Of a stretch of 64,000 bases of DNA, positions 33,001 to 48,000 are shown piece by piece. Location of the stretch: contig CBDFIQ010000001.1 of NCBI GenBank assembly GCA_965248195.1, positions 1,152,001 to 1,216,000 of the forward strand, written 5' to 3'. The stretch is from Longimicrobiales bacterium (GTDB taxonomy: Bacteria; Gemmatimonadota; Gemmatimonadetes; Longimicrobiales; Gaopeijiaceae). The stretch's first letter is position 1; each line of letters starts with the position of its first letter. The position numbers were made by a program.

Positions 33001-36000
33001 TACCCCCATAAACGAGCGAGCATCGCATTCAGGAGGCCTCGTCCGAAGCCCGGCGCGGCGCTCACGGTTAACCAGGAGAACTCATGACTGACTCGAAGGG
33101 CCCGCGTCCGGCCATCTCGCGGAGAGATCTTCTCCGGACCGCCGGGGCCGCCGGAGCGGCCGCGCTGATTCCCGATGCTGTGGGCGCGGTGACGGAAGAA
33201 TCGCCCGTTACCTCATCACACGCGGCGGCGGGCGAGGAGCAGGCAGGCGTTCGGTTGCCATCCGACACGGCGCCGTTGCTCGCCGGTCCACTCACGAATT
33301 TGACGGCCCGTGAAACTGAGATTCTCCGTGCGATGGTCGATCGGCTGATCCCCACCGACGAGTTGGGCCCAGGCGCTCTCGACGCTGGTGTTCTCCAGTA
33401 CATCGATCGCGCCCTGAGTGAAGCGGAGTCCGATGCGGCCGACGCGTATCGGTCCGGCCTGGCGGCCCTCGACACCTACAGTCGTTACACGCGCGGGGGT
33501 CCGTTCATCGACCTCTCCACGGTCGATCAGGACTCGGTGCTCATCGACCTCCAGATCGGAGCCGCGACCGGCGCGGGCGCGGGCTTCGTGGGCAGTTCCG
33601 GCTCGTTCTTCAACATGGTGAAGACTCACACCTGGCAGGGCATGTTCGGCGACCCCAAGTACGGAGGCAACGTGGACTTTGCCGGGTGGGACCTCATCGA
33701 TTATCCCGGTGTGCGTTTGGGGGTGAGCCCCGAGGACCAGCAACGTCTGGAGGCGGATCAGTTGGACCCGGTACGCCGGTCTGCATACGATTTTGGCCTG
33801 TTCGAATGAACGCCGGAATATGGTTCGACCCGGGCTCTAACGGAGGGATCTGAGGTTATGCCGATGCAGCTTGCAGAAACCGATGTCGTCATCGTGGGAA
33901 TGGGCGCGGCGGGTGGCGTCGCCGCCTTACCGCTGGCGGAGGCCGGGCTGAGCGTGGTGGGTCTCGAGGCCGGCACCTGGCTCGACCAACGCGACTTCGC
34001 CCCTGACGAGATCCGGAACAACTATCGCGACTGGCCCATGTTGGTGAAAAAGGCGGAGCAGGAACGGCCCACGTCCCGGGCCACGTCGGCCACCACGGCG
34101 ACCCAAGTCGGAAGCCACCCCATGATGAATGCAGTGGGAGGGACCACACTGCACTACTGGGCCCAGAGTTGGCGGCTCCATCCTTGGGATTTCAGGATGG
34201 TGACCGAAACGGCTAGGCGCTATGGCGCGTCCAGGATCCCGGCCGGCTCCACCGTCGAGGACTGGCCGTTCGGCTACGACGAGTTGGAGCCTTACTACGA
34301 CCGGGTGGAACGCGAAGTGGGTATCTCCGGCCAGGCCGGCAATGTTCGAGGTGACATCGACTCGCGCGGGAATCGATTCGAGGGGCCTCGGCAGCGTGGA
34401 TTTCCCATGCCGCCGCTACGATGGACGGCCTTCAATCATCGCATGGCCGACGCCGCCCGTTCGTTGGGATGGAATCCGTTCCCCGGCCCAGCCGCCGTAA
34501 ACAGCGAAGCGTACGACAATCGCCCGGGATGCGGCTACCACGGGTTCTGCAGCAAGGGTGGTTGTCCGGTCAACGCGAAGAACGCCACCCACATCACGAC
34601 CATTCCTAAGGCCGTCGACACCGGCAACCTCAAGGTGGTCCCGCGCGCGCACGTCACGACGCTGGAGGTGAGTTCGGATGGCCGCGTGACCGGCGTCAAC
34701 TATCTGGTGGGGAGCAACGAGTATTTCCAGCCGGCGAAGGTCGTCTTGATCGCCTCTTATACGTATGAGAACGTCCGCCTGTTGCTCCTTTCGAAATCCC
34801 GCGCATATCCGGATGGGCTTTCGAACAACCATGGACAGGTGGGCCGGCACTACTTCAGTCATTACACGAGCGGGAGTGTGGGCGCGCTCTTCCCGTATGA
34901 CCTCAAGGCATGGTATGGCCTGCCGGCCCAGGGTGTCGCAGTGGATGATTGGGCCGACGACAACTTCGACCACTCAGATCTCGACTTCGTCGGGGGAGGC
35001 AACCTCTGGGTCATGTCCGACCGCCGCCCGATCTCGGCGGCCAGTATGAATACGTACGGGCGAAGCCGAAATTGGGGATCCGCCTGGAAGCGATTTATCC
35101 ACGAGTACTCGGATCGCTCCCACGGCTCCTACATCCAGAAGACGACCCTCCCTTACGAGGAAAACTACCTGGATTTGGATCCTCAGGTGACGGATCCCCT
35201 CGGATTCCCCGTCATCCGCATCACCGGACAATACAAAGACAACGAAAAGGAGATCGGAGTGTTCATGCAGGATCGCATGGAGGACTGGTATCGGGAGGCG
35301 GGAGCTGTCGAGGTCAACCGGGGCGGGCTTGGTAACACCATGGGCGCTTCGACCCACGCCTACGGCGGCACGCGCATGGGCGACGACGCCGAGACCAACG
35401 TGGTCGACCGCTGGGGGTTTTCGCACGAAACGCCGAACCTGGGGGTCTTGGGCGCATCAGTGATGGGAACCAGCGGGGCGCGAAATCCCACCCTGACGAG
35501 TCAGGCCCTCTCTTGGCGGACAGCGGCGCATCTCGTCGACAGCTGGGGGGATATCGCCGAGTAAGCCCACCCTCCCGAGAAGTGGGTCGGGATCGAAAGA
35601 AGAGATGGGGACCGAAGGAGCCGCGGCTGTGCGAAGCGTCCTTCGATCCCCATCAATACCTCAGTAAAAATCCAGCTTGTGAAACGATCGGGTGATCAGT
35701 TCCTAGCAGCGATCCTCTGCTCTTCGTTCGCTTCCCGCTCCGCGACGAGCTTGTCGTAGCCCTCCTGATCGAGGTGCGTCACGGCGATCCACGCGTGCGT
35801 CATCTCGTCCGCGGTTCGGGCGCCCGCAGCCACCCACTGATCCGGGTCCGGGTTGTTGGGGTTGCCCTCCGTGTTGTCGTACCACTGCTTGATTACCATA
35901 ACCGCGCCGGCCGGGAGCAGGGGTGCCGAGTCATCTCCGTAAAGATGACTCTGGTGCCATGTGGCGCTCCAGTTGGAGATCATGCTGATGATCTCCGTCC

Positions 36001-45000: not shown

Positions 45001-48000
45001 CCCCGGCTGCCATGCTCGTGTGGATCTCATCTCCGGTGCGGTCGAGAAACCCGGTATTGATGAAAATCAGGCGGTTCGCTGCCGCGCGGATGCACTGCTT
45101 CAGGTTGACGGTCGTCCGCCGCTCTTCGTCCATGATACCGATCTTCAGCGTTCGCTTCGGCATCCCCAGAGCCTGCTCGACCCGACCGAACAACTCCACC
45201 GTGGCGGCAACCTCCTCGGGCCCGTGCATCTTGGGCTTCACTATATAGACGTTGCCCGTACGGCTGTTGCGTATGGGGCCGTCGCCTTGGAGGTCGTGGA
45301 GGGCGCAGGAGGAGGTGATCAGGGCGTCGAGGAAACCCTCCGGGATGGGCTCGCCAGCCGCCGTGGTGACGGCGTCGGTGTACATGTGAATCCCGACGTT
45401 GCGCACCAGGAGCAGGCTACGGCCTGGCAGTTTGAGCGCCTTGCCGCTCGGGTCTTGATACGTGAGATCCTCATTGAGCGAGCGCGTCAGGGCCCGGCCG
45501 TCCTTCTCGAAGGTGGTCGTGAGCGTTCCCCTCATGATCCCCAGCCAGTTGCGATACAGGACGGTTTTGTCCTCCGCGTCGACTGCCGAGACGGAATCCT
45601 CGCAGTCCTGGATGGTCGTAATGGCGCTCTCCATCACCACGTCGTAGACGCCCGCCGGATGCGCCTTGCCGACGGCGTGATCACGATCGATCCGGATATC
45701 GATGTGGAGGCCATGGTTGCAAAGGAGCACGCTGCTCACCCGCCCGTCCTCGAGCTGGAAGCCGGCGAAGTGGGCCGGGTCGGCCGGCGCCGTTCTCCGG
45801 TCATCGGCGAGCACGCACACGAGGCGGCTCGGACCGTCGTAATTTTCGACGACGAAGTCGGTGACTTCCGAGTAGAGGCCTTCCCTCAGGGGAACGACGT
45901 CGTCGAGAAAGCGCTCGGTCCATTCCACGACCCGGGCTCCCCGCACCGGATTGTAGGCGGCTCCTCGTTCCGCCCCGTCTTCCTCGCTGATGACATCGGT
46001 GCCGTAGAGGGCGTCATAGAGGCTACCCCAGCGCGCATTCGCCGCGTTCAGGGCGTACCGGGCGTTGTCCACCGGCACCACGAGTTGCGGCCCCGCGATC
46101 GACGAGATCTCCGGATCCACATCGTCCGTCGTGATCGCGAACGGGCCCTCCTCCTCGAGCAGATAGCCCGTCTCCGCGAGGAATCGCCTGTAAGCGGCCG
46201 GGTCGAGGGTCTCGCTCGCTCGTTCCTGATGCCATGCATCGAGCCGTTTTTCGTGACGGGCGCGCATGTCGAGGAGGCGGCGATTCTCGGGTCCGAGTTC
46301 CTTGACCATGGCCCCTAGCGACCTCCAGACCGCGTCGGGATCGAGGCCTGTGCCGGGTGCGATCTCGGATTGTACGAGGTCGTAGAGGGGCTTCGCGATC
46401 CTGAGGTTCGCTACGGTGATCGGCTCGAGTGCGCTCATGGTTTGGGGGGCTCCTAGACCAGGGTTCACACCGGCGTGCCACGCCTTCGAGGGAGCGTGAC
46501 TCCGGAGGCCGCCGTCTGGCAGCTCGGCGGACTGCTACTCAGCGAGCCATATCGCGTTAGCTATTGGCCACCGCCGCCTTGGGTCGCGAGCTGCCGTTGG
46601 CGCTCCTGCCGCCGCGTCATCATCGTGTCGTACTCCTCCTGCTCCAGCCGGGTTGTGCCGACCCACATGTGAGACATCTCGTCCACACCGCGCCTGCCGA
46701 ACACCACCCACTGATTGGGATCCGGATTGAGTGGATTTTCGGCGCTGTTGTCGAAGACGGATGTGAACAGAAGCATCGTACCGGCGGGAAGGAGGGGCTT
46801 GGCGTCCTCCTCGAACTGGTAGGAAAGCTGCCAAATGTGCCTATAGTCCGAGACTTTGCCGAGCATTTCCCTGCGGCCATCCGGGTAGATAGCCTCCATG
46901 GACATCTCTTTGCCGCGCATGTGCATGTGCGGCCGGAAGCTGCTGATCAGGGTCGGGGTGGTGAGTACGTGGATGCCTTGGAGAACCTGCTCACCGTACG
47001 GCGGGATAAGAATGTCGCCGCCCCGCGGCATACCGTTCATCCGGTCGACCCTGTAGAGGACCTCTCCTCGGGTCTCGATCTCGGGTCGCTCACCCTCCGG
47101 GTAAAACCAAAGCCCGACATCGACCACGTCGTTCTCTACGACTTCACCGACCGGGAAGTAGTGGATATTAAACGACGCCTCAGCTTCCCCGGCGGGAAGC
47201 AACATCCCGATACCCTCAGGGAACGTCTCATAGCGCTTTCCGACTCCGTAATGCGCGATTCCGACGGTCTGGTCCGCGAACCGGAGGCTCGCGTGGCCGT
47301 GATGGACGACCTTGAGGCCATTCGGATACGCTGGTTTGAACTCATACCCTTTGATCCAGCGGTCCTCGTTGGCCCCCTCGAACTTCTGAGTGGGCCCCCA
47401 CCACTGATCCTGGCCGTTGGCTATCACGTCGTACGCTGCAGATGAGACCACCACATCCGGCGGCCGGCCATACATTTCCTCGAGTACCCAAGCACCGCCC
47501 TCCGCGAGCCGGGGAGGCGGGGGCATATCCGCATCGTCACCCTTGAGCGCACCGCCATCCGCCCACCGGACGATCGTCTCGATCTCGTCGTCGGTCAGCG
47601 CCGCGTCGTTCTCGTAGGCCTGAATACCCACCGTGCGATCGACGTGCCAGGGCGGCATTTGGCGGGTTTGCACTTTGATTTTCATCAGCGGTGCGTACAG
47701 CCGGGCGGTCTCATACGTGAGGAGCGACATCGGCGCGAACGAGCCGGGCCGGTGACACTGGACGCAATTCTCGTAAAGGATCGGCGCCACGTCCCTGGTG
47801 AACGTGACGTCTTGTGCATCGAGTGCCCCCACGGGGAGCGCCGACGCGATCACCAAGGTCGAGGCTAGAACTCCGAGGCTCCGCCGGAAGTGGAATCGTG
47901 GTGAACGGTCTCTCCTCATAATTGCTTCTCCTTGAGCCAACCAACGAGGATATCGTGCACAGAATGCACCATATCCCGAATCCTTACGACGAGATCGGTC

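Follow-up and report, generated by a model that had tools for sequence, protein, structure and literature searches.

The locus lies within a window of 64,000 nucleotides from the genome of a marine Longimicrobiales bacterium (Gemmatimonadota), and its core, positions 35696..47919, extends from the stop of the gene that we call A1 to the start of A4. Four genes for cytochrome c-copper proteins (A1 to A4) and four genes for a partner protein (B1 to B4) are located here on the minus strand, and the complete gene order, all on this strand, is B4-A4-malate synthase G-A3-B3-B2-A2-B1-A1. The individual features, together with two genes of the context, are the following.

35696-37093, minus strand: A1, a 465-residue exported cytochrome c with a predicted PHM/DBH-type two-copper core (open reading frame, fold model and invariant ligands)
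37216-38211, minus strand: B1, exported partner with two beta-sandwich domains; the CC pair is residues 317-318 of the 330-residue form
38344-39750, minus strand: A2, paralogue of A1 (76% identity)
39890-40867, minus strand: B2, paralogue of the partner
40930-41931, minus strand: B3, paralogue of the partner
42071-43441, minus strand: A3, paralogue of A1 (85% identity); Cytochrom_C 21.7 bits versus a cut-off of 21.3
44114-46438, minus strand: malate synthase G, separating A4 from the array and 122 nt downstream of A4 (Pfam MS_TIM-barrel, 1.2e-58)
46561-47919, minus strand: A4, divergent paralogue (39% identity to A1)
48032-48865, minus strand: B4, partner of A4, with the C-terminal end CCWTNGY; PKD 19.5 bits, below the cut-off of 23.5
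49242-50729, plus strand: amidohydrolase (context), divergent from B4 (Pfam Amidohydro_1, 1.5e-27)
50773-52725, plus strand: PQQ-propeller dehydrogenase-like gene (context; Pfam PQQ, 7e-51)

Self-BLAST aligned 35588-38252 with 38249-40908 (79.8% identity) and 37215-39780 with 40929-43472 (81.8%), and also paired A1 with A3 (86.4%) and B2 with B3 (80.6%). These matches are a tandem array of three A and three B genes with a period of ~2.66 kb, which bears out the triplication of ~2.6-kb units described in an earlier note on this DNA; within the array, B3 adjoins B2 with one A gene absent between them. RNA contigs lie on A1 to A3; they come from four libraries in two studies, and carry-over of DNA is possible. 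The neighbourhood of malate synthase G is the same in two genomes of the same genus.

An export signal peptide was read from the sequence of A, and the N-terminal domain is class-I-like cytochrome c, with CxxCH and the methionine of an MPP motif (M99). Comparison of 24 paralogues with identities of 22-85% left C63, C66, H67, M99, H216, H217, H269, H346, H348 and M431 invariant. All ten haem and copper ligand residues that the earlier note had listed thus hold, and the first four make up a haem c motif with its Met ligand, as expected for the CxxCH haem c domain proposed there. In a profile search, the N-terminal motif matched the haem regions of 5c2v_A and 4rlr_A. Cytochrom_C scores of the A proteins ranged from 18.8 to 21.7 bits around the cut-off of 21.3, which only A3 passes, and the sub-threshold Pfam scores reported before were reproduced (Cytochrom_C, E 0.004 in A1; Cu2_monoox_C, E 0.044 in A4).

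The AlphaFold model of A1, computed with an 86-sequence alignment as input (pLDDT 90.2, pTM 0.86), has the double jelly-roll, or two-domain beta-sandwich, that forms the catalytic core of PHM and DBH. Foldseek searches with this model returned DBH or PHM at every one of ranks 1-31 (E 4.6e-13 to 1e-8), and VIA-align superposed it on DBH with Z 22.4 (rmsd 3.1 A, 274 aligned residues) and on PHM with Z 21.4 (rmsd 2.8 A, 250 aligned residues), the next-best fold being PNGase F with Z 7.9. The earlier statement that sequence and profile searches of the PDB find nothing does not stand with a deeper profile: built from 86 sequences, it matched DBH (E 6e-9) and PHM (E 3.2e-6), and one relative, P0207, matched PHM on its own (E 4.4e-6). 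In the profile match, the copper-ligand HH, H and HxH of DBH and PHM align with residues of A. Specifically, H216, H217 and H269 align to the HH and VHY of DBH/PHM and form a CuH-type pattern, which in this enzyme class is HH followed by a third His after about 50-65 residues. H346 and H348 align to HTH and, together with M431, form a CuM-type pattern, in the class an HxH followed by a Met after about 70-85 residues. M431 probably corresponds to Met314 of PHM, judged by its invariance and by how the aligned ranges (161-442 and 60-325) are offset. The residue aligned to the Arg that precedes HTH in PHM is variable among the 24 paralogues (R in 11, Q in 5, E in 6, other in 2).

It would be conceivable that A is a redox-inactive relic or a plain cytochrome with a binding domain, in which the copper-ligand pattern is kept by descent only. 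The A proteins carry only the database names 'cytochrome c' or 'hypothetical', and none of A1 to A4 reaches the Pfam gathering cut-off for Cu2_monoox_C or Cu2_monooxygen, A4 being the sole one of the four to score for Cu2_monoox_C at all (13.7 bits versus a cut-off of 23). Four of 30 longer relatives do exceed the Cu2_monoox_C cut-off. We nevertheless regard the relic explanation as highly improbable: the six copper ligands are invariant across the 24 divergent paralogues, among 86 diverse relatives all have His at position 346, 85 have His at position 348 and 82 have Met at position 431, and the broken paralogue L004 illustrates how decay looks in this family. Together, the fold model, the structural and profile matches and the conserved ligands support a predicted core in A that is a PHM/DBH double jelly-roll keeping both mononuclear copper sites, CuH and CuM, and agree with the fold that the earlier note had proposed.

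The textbook examples of non-coupled two-copper monooxygenases are PHM, DBH and tyramine beta-monooxygenase, all known as ascorbate-using animal enzymes. PHM (1PHM, 1SDW, 6ALA) resembles A in fold, in sequence and in the order HH...H and HxH...M with similar spacing, whereas A has a fused N-terminal haem c where PHM uses soluble ascorbate. A also differs from PHM in being bacterial and periplasmic, in having an obligate, putatively Ig-like partner and 20-30 paralogues per genome, and in the variable residue at the position of the Arg before HTH. Human DBH (4ZEL), which we group with tyramine beta-monooxygenase, is the best match in both structure and sequence and likewise has an extra N-terminal domain, but this domain is a DOMON domain and not a cytochrome c; DBH further differs by a C-terminal dimerisation domain, and we know of no B-like partner for it.

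Profile searches of the organism's own genome matched 28 open reading frames for A, of which about 25 are full-length, one gene is split into two frames and one is partial, equivalent to the 26 copies or so counted previously, and 21 frames for B (20 in the previous count), every one adjoining an A gene. The A profile retrieved 24,099 clusters at 50% identity (E <= 0.001). Relatives with an AhpC/TSA (redoxin)-cytochrome c-Cu2_monoox_C architecture matched the profile at E about 1e-90, and an AhpC/TSA thiol-redox domain is fused in 15 of the 30 longer relatives scanned. These bacterial fusions are members of the same superfamily and differ from A in that a single chain also carries thiol-redox, TPR, EF-hand or ankyrin modules. 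In the literature searched, we found no published study of the bacterial family or of these fusions, and no description of B.

The model of B1 (pLDDT 80.2) consists of two beta-sandwich domains, putatively Ig-like. The C-terminal domain (residues 159-330) resembles PKD/Ig-like chains with Z 8-9.7, a range that the tool rates as common, and Pfam PKD was found in B4 only, at the sub-threshold score listed above. The C-terminal D-x-CC-x-TNGY motif had been called invariant; we found CC-x-TN in 15 of 21 B paralogues, and the absence of the CC motif from the other six shows that the family can do without it. The A proteins paired with these six contain a GCPLC motif. The C-terminal motif loop of B contains no invariant Cys, His, Tyr or Trp, and B as a whole lacks an invariant metal-binding residue.

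Four lines of evidence connect A and B. At 80 loci from three phyla that were retrieved with B, a same-strand A gene directly adjoins B in 78, the other two ending at a contig edge. Both genes are present in the identical 13 of 21 related genomes. Divergence among A paralogues parallels that among B paralogues with a Mantel r of 0.90, a value reached in 0 of 5000 permutations. Finally, the predicted A1-B1 complex scored 0.84, 0.86 and 0.83 in three runs on the model's own confidence scale, while the best of three controls scored 0.00; the runs share at least 71% of their contacts, the partner pLDDT is at least 80 and the interface comprises 92-126 contacts. For orientation, 116 of 157 solved complexes attain this mark, as do 2 of 215 mismatched pairs; these counts are a rough guide only, own alignments having been used here. 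In the prediction, B lies across the cleft between the two copper domains of A. Its strongest contacts come from its N-terminal domain (residues 53-56 and 138-149), and the interface also takes in residues 309-317 of B, which include the first Cys, and residues 349 and 273 of A, neighbours of copper ligands. W420 of A, also in the predicted interface, is conserved as Trp in 22 paralogues, whereas the two without a B have Tyr or Arg at this position. Adjacency, co-occurrence, co-divergence and predicted complex support B as the specific partner of A, the role that the earlier note had suggested for this second secreted protein.

Two other roles of B bear on these data. As a dedicated copper or assembly chaperone, B would bind A transiently; the CC pair in 15 of 21 B proteins, with GCPLC in the A proteins that accompany the remaining six, would fit such a role, as would the likeness to known periplasmic copper chaperones, which are small beta-sandwiches. 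One chaperone per enzyme paralogue would be uneconomical, however, and the lack of an invariant metal-binding residue together with the large and confident predicted interface makes this role, in our judgement, quite unlikely. Less likely again is that B is a substrate or maturation target of A, with its CCWTNGY loop oxidised or cross-linked, e.g. to a protein-derived cofactor, and with the modified B as the working protein. The predicted position of residues 309-317 beside the copper-ligand neighbours, the joint occurrence of Cys, Trp and Tyr in the motif and the strict co-inheritance of A and B are in its favour, but the six motif-less partners are still paired, the strongest predicted contacts are made by the N-terminal domain rather than the motif, and the loop is without an invariant Cys, His, Tyr or Trp.

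The genes around the A/B pairs may bear on the source and fate of electrons. A cytochrome c-PQQ dehydrogenase gene is directly downstream at 40 of 57 loci with the order B-then-A; in the organism's own genome, PQQ dehydrogenases are found at 6 of 21 loci and NHL propellers at 6 of 21. Orthologues of A4 in other genomes sit in B-A-cytochrome c-PQQ operons, and the B4-A4 pair here is without the PQQ gene that same-genus genomes have kept. A search for pqqC gave no match in this genome and none in control genomes either, and is therefore uninformative. Genes for di-haem peroxidases (CCP_MauG) adjoin three loci. The A/B expansion in marine lineages is linked to TonB receptors and amidases as well. 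A possible alternative to a hydroxylase is that A/B serves as an oxidase or as a peroxide-reducing sink for electrons. Supplied by periplasmic PQQ or flavin dehydrogenases, the electrons would enter at haem c and reduce O2 or H2O2 at the copper sites, re-oxidising the dehydrogenases with no carbon substrate modified. The tight linkage to cytochrome c-PQQ dehydrogenases, the peroxidase genes and the frequent thiol-redox fusions of the longer relatives speak for it. We consider it unlikely, because a sink would need neither 20-30 co-diverging A/B pairs per genome nor a variable residue at the position of the PHM Arg, and because the monooxygenase signature of PHM-type enzymes, a complete CuM site including the Met ligand, is kept in A.

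Our working hypothesis, to which we assign a probability of roughly 60%, is that A and B are the two subunits of a periplasmic copper monooxygenase belonging to the PHM/DBH superfamily. In this enzyme, the haem c of A would take the place of ascorbate as the entry point of electrons and pass them to CuH one at a time; O2 activation and hydroxylation of a C-H bond would be the task of CuM. B may shape or cap the substrate pocket, and the 20-30 A/B pairs per genome would represent a repertoire of substrate specificities. Judged by gene order only, the electrons probably come from the adjoining periplasmic cytochrome c-PQQ dehydrogenases, which may also oxidise the hydroxylated product or an aldehyde released from it.

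The earlier note had further counted 48 NHL propellers of the type of PAL, the lyase half of the animal system; the likeness to PAL was partly supported, and our count by hand, with 150 of 207 candidates scored, came to ~42 open reading frames. A profile of the seven neighbouring propellers, which occur at the six loci, aligned with PAL (3FVZ) end to end in one stretch (293 of 369 positions, E 6.9e-43). PAL is also the top match of the N-terminal blades (E 2.6e-9), and in one member PH and DGY align to His585 and Tyr654 of PAM; in PAL, a six-bladed lyase, zinc is bound by His ligands and a Tyr is catalytic. Two His are invariant in the seven propellers and a third is present in five. They differ from PAL in being encoded by separate genes at only 6 of 21 loci and in that two of seven are without the third His; no PAL-like propeller was among 78 neighbours sampled in other genomes. 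Where such a propeller is present, the pair could carry out oxidative N-dealkylation in the manner of animal PHM and PAL.

More speculatively, and with considerable doubt, A/B might join with the cytochrome c-PQQ dehydrogenase, and with the PAL-like propeller at loci that have one, in a self-contained periplasmic machine for oxidative dealkylation. The copper enzyme would hydroxylate the carbon next to an amide N or ether O, a lyase or spontaneous collapse would free an aldehyde or glyoxylate, and the PQQ enzyme would oxidise it and return two electrons from haem to haem, such that O2 but no cellular reductant is needed. The repertoire of co-evolving A/B pairs would then enable marine bacteria (Gemmatimonadota, Acidobacteriota and Gammaproteobacteria of the Pseudohongiella type) to remove C2 units and the nitrogen of amides from refractory dissolved organic matter, with the adjoining malate synthase G taking up the glyoxylate. 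A 'direct coupling' idea exists for pMMO and PQQ methanol dehydrogenase, which similarly links a copper monooxygenase to a PQQ dehydrogenase with possible electron return via c-type haem. In contrast to A/B, pMMO is an integral membrane protein of unrelated fold, whereas here both partners are soluble, each with a cytochrome c domain of its own; in neither system is the coupling proven.

The PHM/DBH core thus extends to a bacterial family of very large size, in which it is joined to a haem c of its own and paired with partner B. If active, its members would be soluble, genetically compact and ascorbate-free C-H hydroxylases with electron input via a cytochrome, and would provide a tool for studying the mechanism of CuH-to-CuM electron transfer and for biocatalysis. 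The marine expansion to 20-30 copies and its linkage to PQQ dehydrogenases, putative PAL-like lyases, TonB receptors and amidases suggest an unrecognised periplasmic oxidation route for recalcitrant organic matter.

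The genes described here are nine minus-strand genes transcribed in the order B4-A4-malate synthase G-A3-B3-B2-A2-B1-A1, in which the A genes encode putative exported proteins with a cytochrome c domain and a two-copper domain of the kind found in the animal monooxygenases PHM and DBH, and the B genes encode their putative partners:

B4: 48865-48032, minus strand, partner gene
A4: 47919-46561, minus strand, cytochrome c-copper protein gene
Malate synthase G: 46438-44114, minus strand, between A4 and A3
A3: 43441-42071, minus strand, cytochrome c-copper protein gene
B3: 41931-40930, minus strand, partner gene
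B2: 40867-39890, minus strand, partner gene
A2: 39750-38344, minus strand, cytochrome c-copper protein gene
B1: 38211-37216, minus strand, partner gene
A1: 37093-35696, minus strand, cytochrome c-copper protein gene

Self-BLAST revealed a tandem array with a period of ~2.66 kb, in which 35588-38252 matches 38249-40908 at 79.8% and 37215-39780 matches 40929-43472 at 81.8%, while A1 and A3 match at 86.4% and B2 and B3 at 80.6%; one A copy is missing from the array, between B3 and B2. The N-termini of all A and B proteins are basic and then hydrophobic, with AQA- or AQ-type sites, and on this sequence pattern we read them as probable signal peptides. Four metatranscriptome libraries from two studies yielded contigs that match A1, A2, and A3 with at least 95% identity; coverage is thinner elsewhere, being sparse over parts of the B genes, of A4, and of the malate synthase gene, and such contigs cannot rank genes. 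They fit transcription of A1-A3 or of close relatives, although they may also stem from carry-over of DNA.

Using profiles on six-frame ORFs, we identified 28 A-type ORFs in the 4.86-Mb genome, corresponding to ~25 full-length genes, another that is split into two ORFs, and one partial gene, as well as 21 B-type ORFs, each of which adjoins an A; both gene orders are present among these pairs. The split A paralogue, at locus L004, consists of two overlapping ORFs (6037-7065 and 7065-7439; contig C1 of the window's own genome, G000, about 615.5-616.9 kb), probably as the result of a frameshift; no B adjoins it, and its neighbours encode a DUF3500 protein and a 2OG-Fe(II) oxygenase. Two ORFs for Mutator-family transposases, at window 27058-28236 (minus strand) and at L014 2349-3527 (minus strand), have an identical Pfam score (335.3 bits, E 5.5e-100) and appear to be copies of a single insertion sequence; the first is 8 kb away from the array and the second adjoins an A/B pair and an integrase gene.

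Domain databases say little about A. At curated cut-offs, the A proteins fall into no family with the exception of A3 (Cytochrom_C, 21.7 versus 21.3 bits), Cu2_monoox_C was seen in A4 only (E 0.044), and NCBIfam returned only noise on A and B. The family is large: an exhaustive profile search retrieved 24,099 cluster representatives with E <= 0.001, of which 5,122 have E <= 1e-30. Ten residues (C63, C66, H67, M99, H216, H217, H269, H346, H348, and M431) are invariant in 24 paralogues down to 22% identity. Among 30 longer relatives scanned, four (P0202, P0207, P0255, and P0159) pass the cut-off for Cu2_monoox_C, 15 have an AhpC/TSA or redoxin domain, and six have TPR repeats.

Structure prediction and profile comparison both point to PHM and DBH. 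An AlphaFold model of A1 based on 86 diverse sequences has a mean pLDDT of 90.2 and a pTM of 0.86, as compared to a mean pLDDT of 57.6 for the model in the earlier note. In Foldseek, ranks 1-31 for this model are human DBH or rat PHM throughout (E 4.6e-13 to 1e-8), followed by viral capsid jelly-rolls with E > 4e-6. VIA-align superimposes the model on DBH with Z 22.4 (rmsd 3.1 Å, 274 aligned residues) and on PHM 6ala_A with Z 21.4 (rmsd 2.8 Å, 250 aligned residues; model 161-442 on chain 60-325), the next fold being PNGase F at Z 7.9. Among PHM structures, the model matches best the citrate forms of the H108A and H107A variants, which probably represent the closed conformer; we regard this as a lead only. 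While sequence searches of the PDB had previously been noted to find nothing, the 86-sequence profile matches DBH (E 6e-9) and PHM (E 3.2e-6), placing the HH of the family on the HH of DBH and PHM, H269 on the His of VHY, and HxH on HTH; P0207 by itself matches PHM with the same alignment of these residues (E 4.4e-6). M431 is equated with Met314 of PHM because it is invariant and because both residues lie 11 positions before the end of their aligned ranges. The PHM counterparts of H216/H217/H269 and of H346/H348/M431 are, as is established for PHM, the ligands of the copper sites CuH and CuM, respectively. On the computational evidence, A is homologous to PHM and DBH, retains both ligand sets intact, and carries a haem c domain in the same chain. 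The position two residues before HTH is an Arg in PHM that presumably binds the substrate carboxylate; in the 24 A paralogues it is Arg in 11, Gln in five, Glu in six, and another residue in two, a variation that would fit different substrates for different A/B pairs.

B has no assigned family; only B4 scores at all (PKD, 19.5 versus 23.5 bits), the relatives of B are unnamed, and an Atlas look-up returned unnamed clusters only. The B model (pLDDT 80.2) consists of two beta-sandwiches, for which Foldseek and VIA-align found only generic Ig-like and PKD matches (TM 0.2-0.3, Z up to 9.7), no separate search having been made with the N-terminal domain.

Four independent lines tie B to A, i.e. adjacency, co-occurrence, co-divergence, and a predicted complex. 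For loci in other genomes, we used a seven-sequence B subgroup as bait, with one genome per species, and took the best 80 of 434 matches; because of this bait, the 80 loci are skewed to the B4-like subgroup. These best 80 matches come from Gemmatimonadota, Acidobacteriota, and Gammaproteobacteria (Pseudohongiella and OM182). In 78 of them, an A gene immediately adjoins B in the same orientation, in many cases only 0-15 nt away, and the other two loci stop at a contig end. A and B occur in the identical 13 of 21 related genomes (all 12 of the same genus and one of another genus), which are not independent of each other; there are 2-32 A and 1-24 B matches per genome, these being matches rather than copy numbers. 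Pairwise distances among the A and B paralogues are correlated (Mantel r 0.90, reached in 0 of 5000 permutations), also within the main group of 13 pairs (r 0.61, 0 of 5000).

The predicted complex of A1 (residues 38-465) and B1 (residues 30-330) scored 0.84, 0.86, and 0.83 in separate runs, while the best of three controls scored 0.00; at least 71% of contacts were common to the runs and the pLDDT of the partner was at least 80. Among solved complexes, 116 of 157 attain the mark that we used, as do two of 215 mismatched pairs; these counts are only rough here because we used our own alignments. On the side of A, the predicted interface comprises residues 172-186, 229-230, 273, 317-322, 349, and 415-429, and therefore spans both copper domains, including residues adjoining the ligands H269 and H348; on the side of B, it comprises residues 51-58, 74-76, 138-158, and 309-317, including the first Cys of a CC motif. 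D416, which is invariant in A, and W420 lie within this interface. The latter position holds Trp in the 22 A paralogues that have a B or were recently copied from one that does, and Tyr or Arg in the two divergent paralogues without a B. Altogether, computation shows B to be a specific, co-inherited partner of A, and B is probably bound to A.

The motif CC-x-TN is present in 15 of the 21 B paralogues, and the other six belong to a divergent subgroup. All six A proteins with such CC-less partners (L001, L003, L005, L013, L014, and L016) have GCPLC in a C-terminal extension. It appears that a pair of cysteines has switched between the A and B chains; considered alongside the redoxin fusions in distant relatives, this pattern suggests that a dithiol has recurrently been brought to the enzyme.

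We scanned 86 neighbours in the window's own genome, taking two or three genes to either side at 21 loci, and found PQQ dehydrogenases at six loci, NHL propellers at six, and exported FAD_binding_2 proteins at three; TonB receptors, DUF5916/CBM9 proteins, an amidase, and amidohydrolases also recur. At L007, genes for a cytochrome c-PQQ protein, a FAD protein, A, B, and an NHL protein lie on one strand, and the order at L016 is TonB receptor, SusD, A, B, and amidase. Nearby in the window there are a PQQ propeller, an amidohydrolase, and another FAD_binding_2 protein. Among foreign loci, a protein of ~740 residues with an N-terminal cytochrome c domain and a PQQ propeller directly follows A in 40 of the 57 with B before A, and some PQQ-type enzyme adjoins in 50 of 80; this PQQ count was scripted over all 80 loci, while the domain scan covered 78 hand-chosen ORFs of 146 neighbours. 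In G011, of the same genus, B, A, cytochrome c-PQQ, and malate synthase G are four consecutive genes on one strand, and in G005, also of this genus, cytochrome c-PQQ follows the A4 orthologue several genes upstream of malate synthase G. Because the window has a gap of only 122 nt between A4 and malate synthase G (46438-46561; compare L102 and L104) where these genomes carry the cytochrome c-PQQ gene, this gene appears to have been deleted in the window's genome. A search for pqqC gave no match in this genome (91.8% complete, with many PQQ-type dehydrogenases), and likewise none in the control genomes.

Several other neighbours were recorded. Convergent with A1, window 33084-35564 (plus strand) encodes a gluconate 2-dehydrogenase subunit 3 with a TAT signal and a GMC flavoprotein; the cytochrome c subunit that usually accompanies them was not seen among the adjoining genes. 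Large DUF5916 proteins, mostly with CBM9, are encoded near A/B pairs at window 29806-32283 (plus strand) and 52775-55045 (minus strand) and at L017, L018, L021, and L104. At L001 (9015-14332), genes for a PSD/PSCyt protein of planctomycete type (DUF1592, DUF1588, DUF1585, DUF1595, and DUF1587), a DUF1552 protein, and an ankyrin-repeat protein come after the A/B pair. In the Pseudohongiella and gammaproteobacterial loci L064, L066, and L069, a gene for a di-haem cytochrome c peroxidase/MauG-like protein lies just upstream of B-A.

NHL repeats occur in ~42 ORFs of the window's genome by a hand count among the 150 of 207 candidates scored. A profile of seven propellers adjoining A/B pairs matches 3fvz_A, a structure of PAL (the lyase half of PAM), in a single stretch (profile 63-355, chain 23-324, E 6.9e-43); TRIM and designed 'Pizza' proteins outscore PAL but match the profile only repeat by repeat. 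In one propeller, the non-canonical N-terminal region has a clear first match to PAL (E 2.6e-9, the next at 9e-4), with its PH and DGY motifs aligned to His585 and Tyr654 of PAM, which presumably serve PAL as zinc ligand and catalytic Tyr, respectively. Two His residues are invariant in the seven propellers and a third is present in five. The C-terminal blade resembles NHL repeats in general and does not single out PAL. None of the 78 sampled neighbours in other genomes is an NHL protein, and the link to PAL is therefore limited to some paralogue groups.

In our working model, the haem of A would take single electrons from periplasmic donors and pass them to CuH, CuM would bind O2 and hydroxylate a C-H bond, and B would shut the cleft of A and add to specificity. 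Gene order suggests that the recurrent cytochrome c-PQQ neighbour serves as electron donor and consumer of the product, and the gene order of PAL-like lyases, amidases, and malate synthase G suggests oxidative N-dealkylation yielding amides and glyoxylate. We found no paper on bacterial PHM/DBH-like enzymes in the literature searched, in which matches to the Pfam names all concerned animals, and passages of a preprint on PQQ enzymes (10.64898/2026.07.10.737718) do not mention the A/B family. The earlier note had proposed a two-subunit hydroxylase of the PHM/DBH class; A/B is a real and well-supported bacterial branch, as yet uncharacterised, of a known kind of enzyme, distinguished by its fused haem c domain and obligate partner, and also by its conserved PQQ-dehydrogenase context.
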